A DNA stretch of 64,000 bases from Nitrospinaceae bacterium. GTDB lineage: Bacteria; Nitrospinota_A; UBA7883; JAJDBK01. Shown here in pieces: positions 2,493 to 22,004 of the stretch. Under the pieces are notes generated by a model, which worked only from the letters and a program-made list of their open reading frames with translations, did no database searches and was not told where the DNA came from. Position 1 is the first letter of the stretch. Each line of letters begins with the position of its first letter. The position numbers and the translations under genes are program-made. The stretch covers positions 1,906 to 65,905 of the forward strand of contig JAJDBK010000057.1 of NCBI GenBank assembly GCA_029261405.1, written 5' to 3'.

Positions 2493-2568
2493 TGGTGGGC
2501 GGTGAGGGGATCGAACCCCCGACATCCTGCGTGTAAAGCAGGCGCTCTCCCAGCTGAGCTAACCGCCC
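2493..2568 (-). tRNA. tRNA-Val (anticodon TAC)
   Basis: Reverse complement reads GGGCGGTTAGCTCAGCTGGGAGAGCGCCTGCTTTACACGCAGGATGTCGGGGGTTCGATCCCCTCACCGCCCACCA. Cloverleaf elements present: 7-bp acceptor stem, GTTCGATCC T-arm, anticodon loop CTTTACACG, encoded CCA. Confidence 0.85.
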
Positions 2569-2622: not shown

Positions 2623-3000
2623 CTATTCATCATTTTTCTTCAGGAAATCGAGAATTGCTAAAATCTCATCTGGAGTCAATTGCTCGATCTTCATTGCTGT
2701 CTCTTTCTTCTTATCTTTCCCCTTCATCCACTTCTTCAGTTCAGTGGTCTCGGAATGATCCCCCTCCCAAACCTTTTGTGGATTACTCAGCCATTCGTAA
2801 AGCCACTCTGCGCTATGTCGCTTGCTGACTCCAAGGAGTCCGGGGCCTACCTTCTTCTTTACTGTGAGGTTGTGACAATTCATGCATTTCTTGGTTCTGA
2901 AAAGCTCTTCCCCTTTGCCGACTTCCGCTCCGTGGGAAACCAGGGCGCTACAAACTACAACTAACGCCATAGCTACGAAGTTACTGACTATTTTATCCAT
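2623..3000 (-). CDS. Monoheme c-type cytochrome (class I-like), secreted
   Basis: 125 aa with N-terminal hydrophobic signal and a single CMNCH heme-binding motif. Confidence 0.7.
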   Translation of the reverse strand: MDKIVSNFVAMALVVVCSALVSHGAEVGKGEELFRTKKCMNCHNLTVKKKVGPGLLGVSKRHSAEWLYEWLSNPQKVWEGDHSETTELKKWMKGKDKKKETAMKIEQLTPDEILAILDFLKKNDE

Positions 3001-3611
3001 TACCTTATTTGCTTTGTATATCTTGCGCTATCACTGGGAAAACCATAAATCACCAGCCCGGATAAGATATTACGCATAAATAGCAAGCCTGAAAGTGAAT
3101 ATGCAATCAATTTTCAATCCGACAATATTCTCTTGGGTAGAAGTACGGTGGCCAGACAGGCGACAGAATCGATCTTTAACCAGAACGATGTTAAAGCGAC
3201 CTTGCGAGCCGTGTCAACAGATAATGAGTTTAACTGAAAAAAGCCCATATCGTTTCAAATTATAAACCACACAACACTTATTTCAATCACTGTACTATGC
3301 TTCATTTGCCACATGCCAACATTGTTTTCAAATGCAGGACGAAAGTAGCAACATCGTCACATTAGTTTAGATATTGCAACATGGGAAAAACGAGGAACTA
3401 ACATCCGCAAACTACTTCAATTAATGAACTATATTCGACACTCAGATGAGATAACCGAGATCTGGCAAAACTGAAACCGAGCAAAAAACATCGTCCGCAA
3501 GAGGTTCGCCACACACATTACTGCAGTTTCTGCATTTTCTAAAGATTAATTATTCAATGAATTAAAAAGAAGCGTTGACTATCTACAAATCAAAAACAGT
3601 ATAGTTCTAAA

Positions 3612-13343: not shown

Positions 13344-13891
13344 GGATTATAGGAGGCGAATTTAAAGGCGCCAACATTTACGGCCCTAAAGGTAAGGAGA
13401 CCCGCCCTACCGCTTCGAGAACGCGGGAGTCGCTCTTTAACATCCTTGGCGCCGCGGTGATGGGATCGAGGTTTCTCGATCTTTTCGCAGGAGCCGGAGC
13501 TGTGGGGTTTGAGGCGTATTCGCGCGGGGCGAAACGGGTTGTGATGGTGGATAACAAACAGATCGACCTGATCGCCCGGAACTGCGCTAAGTTGAGGATC
13601 AAAACCGACGACAGGTTCCACGCCATCCGGGGCGACGCGCTTGTGTCTATGAACGCGCTGATTTCACGGTCGGAAAAATTCGATTACGTCTTCGCCGACC
13701 CTCCGTGGGGTGAGGGGTATGAGAACATCATTCTGGAAGGCGCCCTTCTCCTGCTTGATGACAATGGAACGTTGATTCTGGAGGAGGACTCGAAGATGGA
13801 TGCGCCGAAACAAAACTCGGACGGCAGTCTTGTCCTGACGAAGAGCAGACGGTACGGTTCGGCTACCCTGAATTTTTATTCCGCTCCGTAA
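13340..13891 (+). CDS. rsmD: 16S rRNA (guanine966-N2)-methyltransferase RsmD
   Basis: 183 aa with [17 protein letters not shown] motif and the DPPW catalytic motif ([10 protein letters not shown]). Confidence 0.8.
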
Positions 13892-14627
13892 TGCTTTTGA
13901 GGAACGGCCCGATAAAATCCATCGGTAACGGCACAATGTTGTTGGTGGTCCCCTCCGAAGATATCTCCCGAATGGTCTGAAGGTAACGCAGGGTGAGGGC
14001 CGCCGGGTTACGCGCCATTATCGCCGCCGCGTCAGCCAGTTTTTCCGATGCCTGAAACTCTCCTTCGGCGTTGATGATTTTTGCTCTTCGCTCTCTCTCG
14101 GCTTCGGCCTGTTTAGCCATGGCTCTCTGCATCTCGGTCGGCAGATCGACATGTTTTATCTCGACGTTTGCGACCTTGATGCCCCACGGGTCTGTCCGTG
14201 TGTCGAGGATCGTCTGTAACTCGTTGTTGATCTTTTCCCGTTCACAGAGCAGTTCGTCGAGTTCCACCTGTCCGAGTACGGATCTAAGGGATGTCTGGGC
14301 GAGCTGGCTAGTGGCGAATAAAAAATCCTCCACCTGTACCACCGCGCGATCCGGATCGAAGACGCGGAAATAGACAACGGCGTTTACTTTGACGGAGACG
14401 TTATCCTTGGTGATGATGTCCTGGGATGGAACGTCGAGCACGATAAGGCGCAGGGAGACCTTGACCATCTTATCGATGATGGGCCACACAATAACCAGCC
14501 CCGGCCCCTTGATAGCCAGCACCCGCCCCAGCCGAAACACCACCCCCCGTTCGTATTCGTTGAGCACACGAAGCGCGGAGAGAATAACAAGAAGAATCGC
14601 AATGAAGACAAACGCGCCGCCAGACAT
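13863..14627 (-). CDS. SPFH/Band-7 (stomatin/prohibitin-like) membrane protein
   Basis: 254 aa. N-terminal TM, then SPFH domain ([11 protein letters not shown] ..., coiled [10 protein letters not shown] segment). Confidence 0.8.
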
Positions 14628-14776
14628 AACCGCCTCCTGTTTTTGTCGAGAGTTTTACACGTTGATGATACACCAATTGGGGCGAGGGGATATATAAGGA
14701 TTCATCAGTTAATACAATCAGTAAATAATCGTGTTAAAATGCTCACTTATTCTGTACATAACGAAACAGGCTGACA

Positions 14777-16138
14777 ATGGACAGTTCTTACACCGATGAA
14801 GGGATCACCTCATTATCCGTTCGCGGATTTAAATCTATCGCTGACGAAAGTCGGATTGAGTTACGTCCGCTGACAATTCTTGCGGGGGCAAACAGTTCGG
14901 GTAAATCGAGCATAATACAGCCGCTTCTTTTAATGAAACAGACTTTGGAAGCTACATACGACCCAGGCGCACTATATTCGGATGGTCCGTTACTTCAATT
15001 TACATCATCAGACCAGTTGCTATCAAGCAAACCTGTTAAATCAAAATCGTTTAGTCTCTCTCTTGAGTTGTCCAATTCAGATCGTTTGGAGATTGAATTT
15101 GGCCAGGATAAGAAGGTTGCCTTTGTTGTCAATAAAATGAAATTTACCAGAAACAATAATACTTTAGATCTGAAGGTAAATATGACATCAGAGGAAATCA
15201 AAAACATCACTGCTCCTTATTTGGAAAAGGGCATTTTTTCTCTTCTTTCTGGTAATTACAATGTAATTGAAGAAATGGAAAAAGACAAAACTACGAATTG
15301 CAAAATAAAGAGGGATAGATGTTTCTTAACTGTTTTCTTTGTCGTACCAAAAGATAACTCCGAGCTTGAAAAAGAAAGGATGATGAGATGGATTAGCTGG
15401 ATACCAACCACTATCGGAGCAGACTTGAACATTTTTCAACATAATATTACAAATCTTATCCATCTACCAGCATGGAGAGGTTCACCAAAACGGATATATA
15501 ACAAAACGGCGGTTGGAGATGTTTTCCCAGGCAGGTTTACTGAATATTTTCCTGGAATTATCGTGGACTGGTATGAGAAAGACAAACTCTATAAATTAAA
15601 TGCTTGCCTGAAACAATTAGGTCTTACTTGGAAAGTAATGCCGAAAATAATTAATGAAACCCAAGTGGAACTACATGTTGGACGAACATGCAAAAGTGTG
15701 CGAGGTGGAGGAAGTGATACTGTCAATATCGCTGATGTTGGATTTGGAGTTTCACAGGTATTGCCAATACTAGTAGCGTTACTTGTCGCTAGGAAAGGTC
15801 AAACTGTACATATAGAAGAGCCGGAGATTCATTTACATCCTGCCGCCCAGCGTGATCTGGCGAAGATTATCACGACAGCCGTTAACCGAGGTGTAAGGGT
15901 CATCATGGAAACTCACAGTTCCATTCTACTCCTTGGAGTGCAGACATTGGTGGCTAAAGGTGAAATGGCGGCTGACGATGTAAAATTACACTGGTTTTCC
16001 AGAAACAAAAAAGACGGAACCGCTAAAATTGAACCGGGTGATCTTGACAAAAATGGAGCATACGGGGATTGGCCTGTGGATTTTGATGATGTCTCTCTCG
16101 AACAAGAGGAAGAGTATCTCGACACTGTTCAGCGATAA
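14777..16138 (+). CDS. AAA_21/AAA_15-type ABC-like ATPase with DUF3696-like C-terminus (OLD/Septu/PARIS-type defense ATPase class)
   Basis: 453 aa. Walker A in SVRGFKSI...LTILAGANSSGKSS; signature-like VGFGVSQVLPIL; Walker B VHIEEPEIHLHP; H-loop METHS. The gene is conspicuously AT-rich relative to its flanks. Confidence 0.7.
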   Translation: MDSSYTDEGITSLSVRGFKSIADESRIELRPLTILAGANSSGKSSIIQPLLLMKQTLEATYDPGALYSDGPLLQFTSSDQLLSSKPVKSKSFSLSLELSNSDRLEIEFGQDKKVAFVVNKMKFTRNNNTLDLKVNMTSEEIKNITAPYLEKGIFSLLSGNYNVIEEMEKDKTTNCKIKRDRCFLTVFFVVPKDNSELEKERMMRWISWIPTTIGADLNIFQHNITNLIHLPAWRGSPKRIYNKTAVGDVFPGRFTEYFPGIIVDWYEKDKLYKLNACLKQLGLTWKVMPKIINETQVELHVGRTCKSVRGGGSDTVNIADVGFGVSQVLPILVALLVARKGQTVHIEEPEIHLHPAAQRDLAKIITTAVNRGVRVIMETHSSILLLGVQTLVAKGEMAADDVKLHWFSRNKKDGTAKIEPGDLDKNGAYGDWPVDFDDVSLEQEEEYLDTVQR

Positions 16139-16149
16139 AAGCTCCTGTT

Positions 16150-16689
16150 GTGAAAAAGAAAATATCAGAGTTCGTAGTTGACGCTTCAGTAATGAGATCG
16201 GCTGGCGATGAAAATGCTATAAAGGAAGGTTCCAAAAATTGCAGGGACTTTCTTAAGGCAATGAGAGAGACAAAGTGTAAAGTTGTCCTGACTTCAGAGA
16301 TTAAGGTTGAATGGAAAAAGAACCTATCAAAATATGCTCGGAAATGGTGGTCTTTCATGACAAAGTCCGGGCGAATAACTTACCGTAAAAATACTGTTAA
16401 TGATGACTTACGAAAAACAATAGAGAATAGCGAAAAGCTTAAAACAGACAAACGAAGAAATGCGGCGTTGAAAGACGCAATTCTAATCGAAGCGGCTTTG
16501 GCTACCGACGAAGCTGTAGTGTCACAAGACGATCATGCAAGGCGGGATTTCAAGGTTATCGCAGGTGAATATAAACGAATTAAATCCATTCTATGGATTA
16601 ATCCTGTAAGCGAAGAAGATAACGCGCTTGAGTGGTTAAATAACGGCGCGAGAAAAGAAGATAAACTTCTACTTGGATTCCAAAACTAA
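16150..16689 (+). CDS. Small PIN-like nuclease-domain protein (putative effector partner of the upstream ATPase)
   Basis: 179 aa, GTG start 11 nt after the ATPase stop. All three PIN acidic motifs are spotted by eye: FVVDASV (first Asp); VVLTSEIKVE (Glu); DAILIEAALATDEAVVSQDDHARRDF (third and fourth Asp, matching D..iaA.A...lvT.D.dF). Confidence 0.45.
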   Translation: MKKKISEFVVDASVMRSAGDENAIKEGSKNCRDFLKAMRETKCKVVLTSEIKVEWKKNLSKYARKWWSFMTKSGRITYRKNTVNDDLRKTIENSEKLKTDKRRNAALKDAILIEAALATDEAVVSQDDHARRDFKVIAGEYKRIKSILWINPVSEEDNALEWLNNGARKEDKLLLGFQN

Positions 16690-17711
16690 CTAACCGGCGG
16701 CAGTGGTCCCGCTGTTTTGCCCGGTTGCAGGATCGGGTTTTTTCCATTTTTATCTACGAACCTGCCGTAGTATAGATTCTGGACGTGGTTGCCTTGCACG
16801 AAAAATAACCATCGTTCCGCGAGGCCACCTATCAGCATCGATAGCGCCGCCAACACTCCCCATGTCGAGGGGTGACCGTTGAATACCGCCACATAATCGA
16901 GCGTTAACATTGAGAGGGGCAGGATAAACAAAACCGTCATCACAAACCAGATCATGGCTCGTTCAATTTTCTTCCCCGATTTGTGGAAATATTCCCGCGT
17001 GTTGTAATTCTCATACGCGCATCCTGTATCCATCAGCACGATGTCCGACCGCCACGCGCCAATTGCGCTTTGCAATGTTGTGGAGCTGTAGGCCGTTGAA
17101 TTGTAGAGGTACGACATACCTTTGGCTGTCATGGCTATCACCGTTACCGGAATCGCCATCCTCAGCAGTATCATTATCAGGTCGTGATCCGCCTTGACCA
17201 GCTCCAGCGTCGCCAACAGAATCACCGACCCACCAGCCAGACCAATCACCACAAAGTTGATCGGTGTGTACGGGTTCGCCCACTCCCTGATATATCGAAC
17301 ACTGCAATAGATCATGCCGGAGCTTATCCCCAACGCCAGCCCAACAAAAACTCCCGCCAGTCCGCTCAAAAGCCTCAGCCATGTAGCTACGCCGATGATG
17401 GCGCATATTCCGTATACAACGGTTAATCCAATAAAGAGGGGAAGTAGTAAGACTTCGCGTGATAGCCAGGAGAAACGCCATCTTTTAATCGCTTTGATTC
17501 CCCGGCTTTTATGATGCAGATGGAAAAACGAAGCCATCGTGCCCAATCCCGCCAGAGCCACCGATAAAATCACGCCGTAGAGCATGATATCAAATGAGAC
17601 CGCGCCCCCCTTCAGCAATGTAATCGCGTCGGCGCCTACCAGAAAAAAGAGGACTCCCTCCGCCATTCCGGCAAGGACCGTAAGCAGTATGATCGAGAAT
17701 TCAGGTTTCAT
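16686..17711 (-). CDS. Membrane anchor subunit of a molybdoenzyme complex (NrfD/PsrC/DmsC-type polytopic protein, no heme motifs)
   Basis: 341 aa, about 8-9 hydrophobic helices. Third gene of the ABC operon with the FeS and molybdopterin subunits. Its 3' end overlaps the PIN-like gene convergently. Confidence 0.65.
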   Translation of the reverse strand: MKPEFSIILLTVLAGMAEGVLFFLVGADAITLLKGGAVSFDIMLYGVILSVALAGLGTMASFFHLHHKSRGIKAIKRWRFSWLSREVLLLPLFIGLTVVYGICAIIGVATWLRLLSGLAGVFVGLALGISSGMIYCSVRYIREWANPYTPINFVVIGLAGGSVILLATLELVKADHDLIMILLRMAIPVTVIAMTAKGMSYLYNSTAYSSTTLQSAIGAWRSDIVLMDTGCAYENYNTREYFHKSGKKIERAMIWFVMTVLFILPLSMLTLDYVAVFNGHPSTWGVLAALSMLIGGLAERWLFFVQGNHVQNLYYGRFVDKNGKNPILQPGKTAGPLPPVS

Positions 17712-18442: not shown

Positions 18443-21306
18443 TTTCCGTCAGCCTTATACGAAACAACGTTCGGGCGCTCCATCACCTGTTTCGGCGGTT
18501 TGAGTGGTTTAAACTGCGGCAATGAACCGGCTTTATCCGCTTTGTAGATTTTTACCCGCAGGTCAAACCATCCGGCTTGCCCTGTTATCGGATCGGAGTT
18601 TGATATCCGCTCTTCCATATTGTCCGGGTTGCCTATCTCTTCACTTATCAGGTGGTTGAGCAGAAATCCTTTCTGTACCTCGTCCACTTTCGGATCAAGG
18701 TTCCACGCGCCAGCCATCTTGCCAATGCCGTTCCAGGTCCATACCGTGTCGGGCTGGACTGCGTTGGAGAGTTTTATCTGGACCCTGATTTTCTTGTCGT
18801 GAGCCGATTCGACCCAGACCCAATCCATATCGACAAGCCCCAGTTCTTTAGCCTTGATCGGGTTTATATAGAGAAAATTCTGGCCGATTATCTGCCGTAA
18901 CCATGCGTTTTGCGAGTCCCACGAATGATACATCGGCATAGGTCTCTGGGTAATGGCGTGGATCGGGTACTCTTCGGTGTCGATAGACTTGTCTTCCAGC
19001 GGTTTGTACCAGAAGGGTAACGGATCGAAATAACGGCTGACTCTCTTGCGTTGCGCGTCAGTGGCCGGTTGACGACCGGGCCTTTGACCCTTGGCGGCCA
19101 GACGAAACCTTTGCAGAACCTCCGAGTAGACCTTCATGATAATCGGCTCGTTGTAACGGATCAGCTTATGGTCGAGCGCCCAGTTGAGGTATCCCCGGTT
19201 GATGTTCCTGTTCCACTGCAACGCCTCTTCTAACTCAAACTGGAAAAAACAGTCGTTCTTGATATACATATCCCACTGTTTTTCGTTCGGCTCGCCTACG
19301 ATATGATCGGTTCCATCACCTCTCCAGCCAGCCAGGAAGCCTACAGGAGTATCGGGCGCAACGGTCCAATTGGTTATCATGTCCTTATACCCGCTAAACT
19401 TCGGATTCCCTTTGTCGTCGCAAAAACCTTGCAATTTCAGCCTGTTGGCAAGTTTAATCAACGTCTCCTGAAAAGGTTCGCACCCTTCCGGTGGATCGAT
19501 AATCGGTTGCCTTATAGCGTCCACCACGCTGTTGTAATCGGAGATTGGCCGGTCGAGCAGGCTGATTACATCGTATCTTTCGAGATATGTAGTGTCGGGA
19601 AGTACCAGATCCGCATACGCCACCTGCTCGGAAAAGAAAGCGTCCGAGACAATGATGAACGGTATCTTATACTCACCATTAAAATCCTTGGCTCCGAGCA
19701 TGTCGATGGTTTTGCTTGTATTCATCGACGAGTTCCACGCCATGTTGGCCATAAAAAGGATCAGCGTGTCGATTTTGTACGGATCACCCTTATATGCGTT
19801 GGTAATGACATTTTGCAACATGCCGTGAGCCGTCAATGGGAAATCCCACGAAAACGCCTTGTCGATTCTGACCGGCGAGCCATCCGGGTATACCATCAGG
19901 TTTTCAGGTTTTGTGGGGAAACCGAGTTCAGGGTTTGGCAACGGTGTGTTCGGTTTTATAAGGTCGGGGTCGTCAATCGGTTTAGGACAGGGGGGAATCG
20001 GTTTCGGAAAGGGTGGTTTATGCCGGAACCCGCCCGGTCTGTCGATAATTCCAAGAATCATCATCAGCGAAGAGAGGGCGCGAACGGCCTGGAAACCGTT
20101 GGAGTGGGCGGCCAATCCCCTCATGGCATGGACCGAAACCGGGTTTCCGGTCACGGTTTTGTGCTGTTTACCCCATGCGTCGGTCCATTCTATAGGGAGG
20201 GTGACACTTTCGTCCCTTGCCGTCACACCCAACTCAAAAGCGAGTCTTTCTATAGTCTCTTTCGGGATAGTGGTGATTTTGGAAACCTTATCGATGTTGT
20301 ATTCGGCCAGAACGCGCTCTTTTAATAACTGGAACGATGGTTTTACATGTTTGCCATCCGGCGTTTTATACGAGCCTGTCAGAGCCGGTTTCACACCCTT
20401 GGCCCCGAACGGTTTTACGCTTTGCGTAACCTCGTCCCATACGAAGTTACCGCCCAGATCGTCATCCTTCACCCCGTCTTCCCGCCAGAAAAGACCTTCA
20501 TCCTCTCCGCCCTGATCGGTAACCACCAGTTGTGCGGAGTTTGTGCGGGTCAGCAGGAACTCGTCGTCGTAAAGACCGTTTTTTATCAATACGTTGAGTA
20601 TTCCCATGATGAATGCGCCATCGGTTCCCGGTTTGATCGGGACCCACTCGTCCGCCACGGCGCCGTAACCCGACCTGACCGGGTTTATCACTACGACCTT
20701 GGCGCCCCGCTCCTTGAGTTTACCCAAGCCTATCTTGAATGGGTTGGAGTCGTGATCCTCCGCAACACCAAATAAAATCAGGTATTTAGTCCGGTCCCAA
20801 TCGGGGCCACCAAACTCCCAACCAGTCCCGCCGACCGAATAGATCATGCCGGTTGCCATGTTCACAGAGCAGAAACCTCCGTGCGCCGCGAAGTTGGGGG
20901 TTCCGAACTGCTTGGCCCAATAAGATGTGAGCGCCTGCATCTGGTCGCGCCCGGTGAAAAACGCCAGTTTTTTCGGATCTTCGTTTCGGATCTTTTTCAG
21001 ACGTTCGGTCATGATGTCGTAGGCGCGTTCCCACGATATCTCCTCGAACTGGCTATCTCCCCGGTCGGTCCCTTTTTTTCGAAGGAGCGGTTTGGTCAGT
21101 CGGGCGGGGCTTGCCTGTTTCATGATTCCGGCGGAGCCTTTGGCGCAAAGGACACCACGATTAGTCGGGTGAGCCGGGTTCCCTTCTATATAACGTATCT
21201 TTCCGTTTCTGAGGGTAACCCTGATGCCGCATCGGCAGGCGCACATATAACAGGTGGAGTATTTTACCTCCTCGACATCATCCGCTGTATCTTTTTCAGT
21301 TGTCAC
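18439..21306 (-). CDS. Molybdopterin (bis-MGD) oxidoreductase catalytic subunit, Psr/Phs/Ttr-like (polysulfide/thiosulfate/tetrathionate reductase family); GTG start, no twin-arginine signal
   Basis: 955 aa. N-terminal FeS-binding Cys cluster CYMCACRCG, with MopB-family molybdopterin-binding domains throughout. Forms an operon with the FeS and anchor subunits. Confidence 0.75.
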   Translation of the reverse strand: MTTEKDTADDVEEVKYSTCYMCACRCGIRVTLRNGKIRYIEGNPAHPTNRGVLCAKGSAGIMKQASPARLTKPLLRKKGTDRGDSQFEEISWERAYDIMTERLKKIRNEDPKKLAFFTGRDQMQALTSYWAKQFGTPNFAAHGGFCSVNMATGMIYSVGGTGWEFGGPDWDRTKYLILFGVAEDHDSNPFKIGLGKLKERGAKVVVINPVRSGYGAVADEWVPIKPGTDGAFIMGILNVLIKNGLYDDEFLLTRTNSAQLVVTDQGGEDEGLFWREDGVKDDDLGGNFVWDEVTQSVKPFGAKGVKPALTGSYKTPDGKHVKPSFQLLKERVLAEYNIDKVSKITTIPKETIERLAFELGVTARDESVTLPIEWTDAWGKQHKTVTGNPVSVHAMRGLAAHSNGFQAVRALSSLMMILGIIDRPGGFRHKPPFPKPIPPCPKPIDDPDLIKPNTPLPNPELGFPTKPENLMVYPDGSPVRIDKAFSWDFPLTAHGMLQNVITNAYKGDPYKIDTLILFMANMAWNSSMNTSKTIDMLGAKDFNGEYKIPFIIVSDAFFSEQVAYADLVLPDTTYLERYDVISLLDRPISDYNSVVDAIRQPIIDPPEGCEPFQETLIKLANRLKLQGFCDDKGNPKFSGYKDMITNWTVAPDTPVGFLAGWRGDGTDHIVGEPNEKQWDMYIKNDCFFQFELEEALQWNRNINRGYLNWALDHKLIRYNEPIIMKVYSEVLQRFRLAAKGQRPGRQPATDAQRKRVSRYFDPLPFWYKPLEDKSIDTEEYPIHAITQRPMPMYHSWDSQNAWLRQIIGQNFLYINPIKAKELGLVDMDWVWVESAHDKKIRVQIKLSNAVQPDTVWTWNGIGKMAGAWNLDPKVDEVQKGFLLNHLISEEIGNPDNMEERISNSDPITGQAGWFDLRVKIYKADKAGSLPQFKPLKPPKQVMERPNVVSYKADGK

Positions 21307-21483
21307 TTTTCACACCGGGGGGGGGAGGTCAACATTGCCTGCAACCTGAGCATAGATTATTATTTATGCTAATGTTAGAGGTGAAATTGGTAAATTTCCA
21401 ATAGTTTTTTTTTATATACTCATAATCGGTCGGGTTTAAAGAACCTGCGAGATTCTGGGGAAAAAGGTGAAAAAGGATCATTT

Positions 21484-21516
21484 TTCTCTAATGCTCCTTT
21501 CTCCTGATACCGATAA
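21484..21516 (+). promoter_or_regulatory. Possible sigma-28 (FliA)-type promoter upstream of flgM (-10-like CCGATAA at 21510-21516; weak -35 CTAA)
   Basis: GCCGATAA-like -10 about 170 nt upstream of the flgM start. The -35 match is poor. Confidence 0.2.
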
Positions 21517-21686
21517 AGAACCAACAAGCGGATAGAATAAGAAAAAAAGAGATTCTTTTCCGGTTTCCCTAAAGTCTGGAGAGGGAAATGCCGATAGGAT
21601 TAGCAAGGAGTGGCTTGGAGCCCGCCCGGAATGTATAATCCGGGTTGACGTTACCACATTTGCATGGTGAAAGGAGGCGATATCAG

Positions 21687-22004
21687 ATGATTAAGGTTAC
21701 GGGATCGGATCACAACCTGAATCAGAACAAGGTTGATGAATCCAGGCGACGTGATAGCGCCGTAACAAAGAACACGGCGAAAGCGGCCACCAACCCGACT
21801 GCCGCAAAAACAGCGGAGACTGTTGCAGTATCGGGAATGGCGCGCGAAGTTGGCAAAGTAAGCGCCCAGGTAAAGAACGTACCTGATGTCAGGCGTGAGA
21901 AAGTTCAGGCTATCAAGGAGAAGATCGACAGCGGAAAGTATTTCGTATCGAGCAACGACATAGCCGGCAAGATGATCGAGGATATCGTGCGGCAGGGCAA
22001 ATAA
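21687..22004 (+). CDS. flgM: Anti-sigma-28 factor FlgM
   Basis: C-terminal VRREKVQAIKEKIDSGKYFVSSNDIAGKMIEDI matches the FlgM domain. The start at 21687 is preferred because it is preceded by GGAGG. Confidence 0.6.
   Translation: MIKVTGSDHNLNQNKVDESRRRDSAVTKNTAKAATNPTAAKTAETVAVSGMAREVGKVSAQVKNVPDVRREKVQAIKEKIDSGKYFVSSNDIAGKMIEDIVRQGK

Follow-up and report, generated by a model that had tools for sequence, protein, structure and literature searches.

Gene layout and composition of the cassette

The window analysed here is a stretch of 64 kb (64,000 nucleotides) of DNA from a Nitrospinaceae bacterium (contig JAJDBK010000057.1), and the element in question is a two-gene cassette that it carries on the plus strand. 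The first gene (gene 1) encodes an ABC ATPase and starts with ATG, and the second (gene 2) encodes a small PIN-fold protein and starts with GTG, 11 nt past the gene 1 stop codon. Both open reading frames (ORFs) are real genes, with hundreds to thousands of homologues each and under purifying selection. The cassette and the elements that adjoin it are as follows.

14628-14776, plus strand: AT-rich leader (GC 0.383), the presumed promoter region, between the divergent band-7 gene and gene 1
14777-16138, plus strand: gene 1, ABC ATPase with an SMC/Rad50/OLD-like head and a DUF3696-type C-terminal tail, 453 amino acids (aa), assigned with Pfam and PADLOC
16139-16149, plus strand: spacer of 11 nt, read in the sequence, in an operon with probable translational coupling
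16150-16689, plus strand: gene 2, stand-alone PIN-fold protein, 179 aa, GTG start, assigned from fold and profile evidence
16719-16748, plus strand: terminator-like hairpin with a T-run (weak evidence), 30 nt past the gene 2 stop and within the 3' end of the convergent anchor gene

Upstream of gene 1 lies a divergent band-7 gene (13863-14627, minus strand), and downstream of gene 2 lies the convergent gene for the DmsC-family membrane anchor of a three-gene molybdoenzyme operon. Gene 2 ends in TAA (16687-16689) and the anchor gene in a minus-strand TAG (16686-16688), and these two stop codons interlock in an overlap of 4 nt. An earlier note on this DNA, made from the letters alone, had described the GTG start of gene 2, the 11-nt gap and the 4-nt overlap at the 3' end, and all of these are as it claimed. 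A consensus scan of the leader (14628-14776) found no plus-strand site of the sigma-70 type, and the counts of promoter-like and terminator-like sites in the region were not above those obtained with shuffled sequence.

The cassette is foreign in composition, and the pair has probably been acquired horizontally. The G+C content of positions 14628-16689 is 39.9%, compared with 51.8 +/- 2.1% in all other 2-kb windows (z = -5.75), which makes this the lowest-GC 2-kb stretch of the 64 kb. Likewise, the G+C content at third codon positions (GC3) is 0.36-0.37 in both cassette genes versus 0.57-0.68 (about 0.62) in six neighbouring genes. The AT-rich 2-kb stretch that the earlier note had described is thus borne out by windowed measurement. 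The boundaries of the cassette carry no flanking repeats (short matches of chance size only), no tRNA gene and no integrase.

Sequence and fold of the two proteins

Gene 1 is matched by the Pfam models AAA_21 and AAA_15, both at about 3e-27. The DUF3696 model falls below threshold on gene 1 itself (16.6 bits versus the Pfam cut-off of 22) and is found at E <= 0.01 in 32 of 47 gene 1 orthologues. The prediction of an AAA_21/AAA_15 ATPase with a DUF3696-type tail was therefore upheld, with the tail recognised in relatives and sub-threshold in the gene 1 copy. Among the PADLOC models of defence proteins, the best match is NsnB of the Menshen system (2.1e-61, 207 bits, profile positions 2-335 of 345), followed by HEC-03B (5.7e-42), PDC-M55A (2.7e-35) and AriA (9.5e-30); the AriA and GajA models match far more weakly than that of NsnB. 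The conservation of the ATPase motifs was counted over 97 family sequences.

14879-14911, plus strand: Walker A (P-loop) LAGANSSGKSS, residues 35-45; G37, G42, K43 and S44 invariant (97 of 97)
15734-15757, plus strand: ABC signature variant DVGFGVSQ, residues 320-327, with GxG replacing SGG; D320, G322, G324 and Q327 invariant
15803-15841, plus strand: Walker B region TVHIEEPEIHLHP, residues 343-355; E347, P349, E350, H352 and H354 invariant
15908-15919, plus strand: H-loop ETHS, residues 378-381; invariant (97 of 97)
15971-16084, plus strand: DUF3696-type tail KLHWF...GAYGDWPVDF, residues 399-436; W406, G427, D435 and F436 invariant

In the family as a whole, the Walker A consensus LTILAGANSSGKSS is essentially invariant, the signature, in the region that had been quoted earlier as VGFGVSQVLPIL (residues 321-332 of gene 1), takes the form DVGxGVSQ, and the tail has the consensus KLHWF...GAFGDWPEDF. 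Walker B, which had been quoted earlier as VHIEEPEIHLHP (residues 344-355), follows the pattern hhhE(Q/E)PEIHLHP. Its catalytic-base position, residue 348 (15818-15820), is Gln in 86 of the 97 relatives and Glu in gene 1. The same position also reads E-Q in the ATPase of HEC-03, a phage defence system considered below, and E-N has been reported for NsnB. This substitution suggests that ATP hydrolysis may be slow or regulated across the whole ATPase clade. Every motif that the earlier note had quoted for the ATPase and for gene 2 was located in the translations, and gene 1 retains a complete set of nucleotide-binding motifs.

The structure of the ATPase was modelled from database homologues of gene 1, and its structural neighbours are SMC, Rad50, PtuA, AriA and GajA, with the SMC head 5H68 as the best.

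The gene 2 protein is a single domain with a Rossmann-like alpha/beta/alpha fold and a parallel sheet, closest to VapC toxins, and HARP, a protein-only RNase P, is among its PIN matches. The family to which it belongs comprises at least 2,305 clusters at 50% identity (E <= 1e-3), nearly all of them stand-alone proteins of 170-190 aa. The motifs read in gene 2 are FVVDASV (residues 8-14), TSEIKVE (48-54) and DAILIEAALATDEAVVSQDDHARRDF (109-134), and they hold the following acidic residues, whose conservation was determined in 150 representatives, each less than 50% identical to the others.

16180-16182, plus strand: D11, conserved in 148 of 150
16309-16311, plus strand: E54, conserved in 148 of 150
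16474-16476, plus strand: D109, conserved in 150 of 150
16528-16530, plus strand: D127, Asp in 144 and Glu in 5 of 150

A further acidic position, D120, is Asp in 141 and Glu in 5 of the same representatives. On the modelled secondary structure, the acidic positions fit the canonical PIN pattern: D11 at the end of beta1, E54 in the helix after beta2, D109 in the 'D..LIEAALA' helix and D127 in the 'S-x-D' after beta4. The D-E-D-D positions are under strong purifying selection, and the PIN domain is predicted to be catalytically competent.

Gene 2 has no significant match in Pfam, NCBIfam, PHROGs, PADLOC or PDB sequences, and the family profile finds nothing among PDB sequences. The sole Pfam PIN match of gene 2 is PIN_10 at E 0.27, and among the 150 representatives the most frequent of the faint Pfam PIN matches are PIN_3 in 8 (best 4.7e-5) and PIN_12 in 7. 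Because Pfam gives gene 2 no significant PIN match, its assignment is based on fold and profile evidence. Of the earlier description of gene 2 as a PIN nuclease, the fold and the four conserved acidic positions have therefore held up, and the Pfam PIN match that it had led one to expect did not appear.

Note that the public gene call for gene 2 begins at the ATG at 16192 and yields a protein of 165 aa that lacks beta1 and the near-invariant D11, whereas the alignment of homologues favours the GTG at 16150 as the true start. Database copies of the gene 2 family may therefore often be truncated at the N terminus. At the other end of the protein, residues 140-179 (16567-16686) form a tail of ~40 aa in which W149, P152 and W162 are invariant and N151, G166 and A167 are nearly so.

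Linkage, predicted function and genomic context

Linkage of the two genes was assessed at 75 loci obtained from a scan of one genome per species. These loci come from ~30 Cyanobacteria, 11 Chloroflexota, 10 Acidobacteriota and 6 Planctomycetota, and from Poribacteria, Beggiatoa-like Gammaproteobacteria, Armatimonadota, Spirochaetia and others, more than 10 phyla in all. At ~70 of the 73 loci for which upstream DNA is present, a full-length gene 1 homologue (38-49% identity) immediately precedes the small gene in the same orientation; a few copies that are split or degraded depart from this. At 48 of 50 loci, the gap between the ATPase stop and the point where the tblastn match to gene 2 begins measures -10 to +27 nt, and a reverse check from three ATPase homologues found the small gene downstream in all three. 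The two families thus co-occur in other genomes as a strictly co-inherited cassette, in agreement with the two-gene arrangement proposed at the outset. Clustering of all flanking ORFs revealed no third gene common to more than 8 loci, and such cases reflect clade-level synteny; the unit is therefore a two-gene operon.

Some copies depart from this pattern. Degraded pairs were observed at L076 (7450-8303), L047 (6652-8012), L059, L068 and L071, where ATPase fragments, an inverted C-terminal ATPase piece or split ORFs are present, and they would fit a costly or toxic module that often decays into pseudogenes. One Spirochaetia metagenome-assembled genome (OZ241879.1) holds two separate ATPase-PIN copies at distant sites (L041 and L058).

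This distribution bears on the possibility that the pair serves housekeeping nucleic-acid processing or repair, either as an SMC/Rad50-like ATPase with a nuclease or through a HARP-like RNA-processing PIN. Such a role would accord with the structural proximity of gene 1 to SMC and Rad50 heads and with the presence of HARP among the PIN matches. However, the ATPase lacks a coiled-coil insertion and its nearest sequence relatives are defence ATPases, and the foreign composition, the patchy occurrence among phyla, the two copies in one genome and the several degraded copies all speak against it. We consider a housekeeping function the least probable of the explanations weighed here.

The comparison that carries most weight is that with HEC-03 (Hma-embedded candidate 03), which consists of an ABC ATPase and a VapC-like PIN protein from Pseudomonas cichorii (Payne et al., bioRxiv 10.1101/2024.01.29.577857). 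When placed in E. coli, HEC-03 reduces plaquing by orders of magnitude, requires both genes and is toxic on induction (bioRxiv 10.1101/2024.01.29.577857). Its proteins are WP_025259138.1, a DUF3696 domain-containing ATPase, and WP_025259137.1, of 157 aa, and the two genes overlap by 14 nt (Table S2, bioRxiv 10.1101/2024.01.29.577857). By BLASTP, residues 10-394 of gene 1 align with WP_025259138.1 at 26% identity (E 1e-22), and gene 2 exhibits no similarity to the HEC-03 PIN protein. When the gene 2 family profile was compared by hhalign with a profile of 45 HEC-03 PIN homologues, the two matched at 94.8% (E 4.9e-8) over 132 columns, with D11 paired with D/E5, C31 with C27, E54 with E52, D109 with D110 and D127 with D129.

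The anti-phage role put forward in the earlier note is the best-supported reading, as a prediction from the remote homology of both proteins to a system that has been validated by experiment. Overall, we think it likely that the cassette was gained by horizontal transfer as a self-contained unit of two genes and belongs to the HEC-03 type, in which a DUF3696-tailed ABC ATPase is paired with a catalytically competent PIN-fold nuclease.

A mechanism can be proposed by analogy with the genetics of HEC-03, AlphaFold 3 (AF3) models of NsnB-NsnC and the structures of PARIS and Septu. We infer from these that the DUF3696-type tail may be the docking site for the PIN protein, such that ATPase oligomers would hold the nuclease inactive via their C-terminal tails. 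The variable inserts of the ATPase would sense a cue from the phage, and the ATP-bound state would change as a result; the Gln at the Walker B catalytic base in most members suggests an ATP-binding switch over fast turnover. The PIN nuclease would thereby be released or activated and would cleave RNA, probably tRNA, rRNA or mRNA as VapC-type PINs do. Cleavage of this kind could stop the growth of the infected cell (abortive infection) or the replication of the phage.

Several observations weigh against assignment of the cassette to an anti-phage module of the HEC-03 type. The relationship to HEC-03 is distant, with 26% identity for the ATPase and similarity at the profile level only for the PIN protein, and the PADLOC HEC-03 PIN model misses gene 2, which has no PADLOC match at E <= 1. 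The putative contact between ATPase and PIN through DUF3696 is drawn from published models of a different system. Within the window, the neighbouring genes are metabolic (the band-7 gene and the molybdoenzyme operon), and the 96 nearest and 82 second-nearest ORFs at other loci are mostly housekeeping genes, a count made with no matched random control. Moreover, homologues of gene 2 are absent from 72,556 plasmids and 50,697 phage genomes.

No empty site was found either: an exact look-up of the band-7 protein returned the same contig only, with the 4Fe-4S subunit not on record; a metagenome scan with the anchor protein returned nothing; and a band-7 scan gave 80 loci at 58-72% identity, none of them syntenic. 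The earlier note had spoken of a 'recent, tight insertion'. Because the searches for an empty site and for flanking repeats found nothing, it is composition alone that backs a recent insertion. The suggested association with defence islands appears weak. Among the 178 neighbouring ORFs, PADLOC matches are scattered, with one or two members each for caspase, PsyrA, ShosA, REase_I, PD-T4-6, mad6 and MkoA.

The same observations keep a second explanation live, in which the pair is an addiction module resembling a toxin-antitoxin (TA) system. In such a module, a VapC-like PIN toxin would be held in check by the ATPase, and the pair would be selfish DNA or a stress module with no primary anti-phage role. 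The PIN fold is nearest to VapC toxins, the cassette stands alone among housekeeping genes, as do its counterparts in most other genomes, HEC-03 is toxic on induction, and the Pfam label of AAA_21 is 'putative AbiEii toxin, Type IV TA system'. TA genes also occur near some of the loci, including PrlF, HicB and MNT/HEPN-type pairs. Nevertheless, the validated homologue HEC-03 protects against phages and needs both genes to do so, a 450-aa ABC ATPase with conserved and variable insert regions is unlikely to be a simple antitoxin, and the plasmid collection, in which addiction modules are common, lacks the pair. The two interpretations also overlap, as many TA modules act as abortive-infection systems. 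Given the apparently weak island association, the lack of plasmid and phage homologues and the lack of an empty site, the TA-like interpretation stays in play and partly overlaps with that of a defence module, although we judge it unlikely.

Individual neighbourhoods include a metagenomic locus (L002, 4222-4791) at which a stand-alone EcoEI_R_C protein, corresponding to the C-terminal domain of a type I restriction R subunit, is encoded directly upstream of the ATPase. In a 5.6-Mb genome (L160, 1-1613), a pair consisting of an AAA_21 ATPase and a DUF4276 protein, similar to PARIS and HEC-01, lies together with a HicB antitoxin ~3.4 kb upstream of the ATPase-PIN pair. This locus is among the few with clear defence neighbours.

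Elsewhere in the window, the only tRNA gene is that for tRNA-Val (2493-2568, minus strand). After it comes an AT-rich, largely ORF-free segment at ~3000-3610 (GC 0.38-0.39), the second compositional anomaly of the window. An AT-rich intergenic region at 21250-21700 (GC 0.39-0.41), upstream of the molybdoenzyme operon, is probably regulatory.

Comparison with known ATPase-effector systems

The cassette and HEC-03 have the same architecture, in which a DUF3696-tailed ABC ATPase of ~450-460 aa is followed by a small stand-alone PIN protein of 157-179 aa encoded by an overlapping or abutting gene. Their ATPases have in common the motifs GxNSSGKSS, DVGFGVSQVLP, E(Q/E)PEIHLHP and E(T/S)HS, including the GxG form of the signature, and both PIN proteins resemble VapC11 (PDB 6A7V). 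The earlier note had recognised no described arrangement of an ATPase with a stand-alone PIN protein and had suggested an undescribed variant. This suggestion did not survive, because HEC-03 has exactly this arrangement and was validated against phages. Pairs of OLD-type ABC ATPases and PIN endoRNases are also mentioned in a 2026 survey (PMC12839542), the supplements of which hold no family-specific data on OLD-ABC and PIN pairs.

The two PIN proteins nonetheless represent separate sequence families. In HEC-03 PINs, C23, C27 and C150 are invariant and the C terminus is a Cys-rich 'QLCPEHGC', possibly a metal knuckle. The gene 2 family lacks this end and has the W149/P152/W162 tail in its place, and of the three invariant cysteines it retains the counterpart of C27 alone. 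These alternative C-terminal tails may be ATPase-docking elements. The lineages differ as well, with Cyanobacteria, Chloroflexota, Acidobacteriota, Planctomycetota and others for the gene 2 clade and Pseudomonas, Burkholderia and Aeromonas for HEC-03, and the cassette, unlike HEC-03, lies outside Hma and any other defence system. Because the PADLOC PIN model (HEC-03A) matches only 1 of the 150 gene 2 family members (E 0.0047), the cassette falls outside the operational HEC-03 family. Taken together, the sequence comparisons point to a divergent HEC-03-type variant within a wider DUF3696 ATPase clade that includes NsnB. In PADLOC-DB v2 (PDLC04147/PDLC04148), the name 'HEC-03B' denotes the ATPase model (458 positions) and 'HEC-03A' presumably the PIN model, and the letters are used the opposite way in the preprint, a pitfall for readers of annotations.

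The full-length relatives of gene 1 found on plasmids are HEC-03-type pairs, for example in Aeromonas. On the conjugative plasmid NZ_AP022291.1 of Aeromonas veronii (L166, 3974-6602), an HEC-03-type pair with a PIN protein that has a 99.7% match to the HEC-03 profile is followed directly by a gene for an 'RNA ligase family protein', and AbiEii and Hok/Gef genes adjoin. The RNA ligase neighbour hints at an RNA target with possible repair.

The other close relative is Menshen, the NsnABC system (Millman 2022) that has since been dissected in detail (PMC12065111). It consists of NsnA, a DUF262 protein (ParB-DUF262 and ParBDB); NsnB, a DUF3696 ATPase; and NsnC (PMC12065111). In NsnC, an N-terminal inactive PIN (inPIN) domain, predicted with AF3 to dock between two DUF3696 tails, is joined to a C-terminal toxin (PMC12065111). 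The GxG signature variant has been described for NsnB, sporadic domain loss has been reported for the system, and all 35 Menshen inPIN families lack the D-E-D-D residues (PMC12065111). Because that survey was seeded on DUF262, it was blind to pairs that have no NsnA (PMC12065111).

The cassette ATPase belongs to the same DUF3696-tailed ABC clade as NsnB, its top PADLOC match, and shares with it the GxG signature, a non-canonical Walker B and the SMC head 5H68 as best structural neighbour, and in both systems the gene after the ATPase begins with a PIN-like fold. In contrast to Menshen, the cassette has no NsnA, its partner protein is a single domain with no fused nuclease or toxin, and its ATPase is ~100 aa longer than NsnB. 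The cassette PIN also keeps its acidic residues and is far closer to canonical PINs than is the inactive PIN of NsnC. By tblastn, Menshen-type ATPases align to the C-terminal half of gene 1 only, whereas HEC-03-type ATPases align over 92%. At a plasmid Menshen locus (L168), the ATPase differs in length from gene 1, and the NsnC protein exhibits no similarity to the gene 2 or HEC-03 PIN profiles, a comparison of low power with a single sequence.

These data also address the idea that the pair is a decayed Menshen system, stripped of NsnA and of the effector domain at the C terminus of NsnC. The NsnB match, the GxG signature, the DUF3696 tail, the PIN-like start of NsnC and the reported domain loss would all be accommodated by such decay. 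However, no NsnA or DUF262 gene lies next to the pair in the window or among the recurrent neighbour families of the ~70 loci, which span more than 10 phyla. Gene 2 keeps the D-E-D-D residues that every Menshen inPIN family lacks, and the NsnC model matches 1 of 150 gene 2 family members (E 0.003). Further points against decay are the lack of similarity between NsnC and the PIN profiles and the restriction of the tblastn alignments to the C-terminal half. Because purifying selection maintains the two-gene form as such, the pair is not a Menshen remnant, and we assign this alternative a very low probability.

A broader relationship may be entertained more readily, if still only tentatively. The clade could be the NsnA-independent, active-PIN form of one superfamily of DUF3696 ABC ATPases with PIN partners, which would also take in HEC-03 and, from Menshen, the NsnB-NsnC core. 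On this view, NsnC would carry in its inactive PIN a former effector, reduced to an adaptor that docks on the tails, and the system would later have gained fused toxins and a DUF262 sensor. If true, the clade would amount to a large defence set missed by annotation tools, comprising at least 2,305 clusters at 50% identity, with Cyanobacteria dominant among the reference genomes scanned. The architecture and probable function are known from HEC-03, and the cassette is not a new class of system. What the analysis identifies is a large ATPase-PIN clade that is unannotated, its PIN proteins being labelled 'hypothetical' and its ATPases 'AAA family ATPase'. PADLOC cannot call this clade because its PIN model does not reach the gene 2 family. 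A profile for that family would raise the counts of defence systems in Cyanobacteria, Chloroflexota, Acidobacteriota, Planctomycetota and other environmental phyla.

More distant systems differ from the cassette in their effectors. In PARIS (AriA/AriB) and Septu (PtuA/PtuB), the effector is a TOPRIM protein (AriB) or an HNH protein (PtuB), and in Gabija a TOPRIM domain is present at the C terminus of GajA, whereas the partner in the cassette is a PIN protein. The cassette ATPase moreover has a DUF3696 tail, and its sequence similarity to the PARIS and Septu ATPases is much weaker than that to NsnB or HEC-03. With VapBC, the cassette shares the effector fold and the VapC-like acidic tetrad, but it has no VapB-type antitoxin, its upstream partner is a 453-aa ABC ATPase, and the Pfam PIN models are not significant. 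The clade sits between HEC-03 and Menshen, with an ATPase that matches NsnB best and a partner that is an intact PIN as in HEC-03, and it offers a good test case for the control of PIN-fold partners by DUF3696 ATPases.

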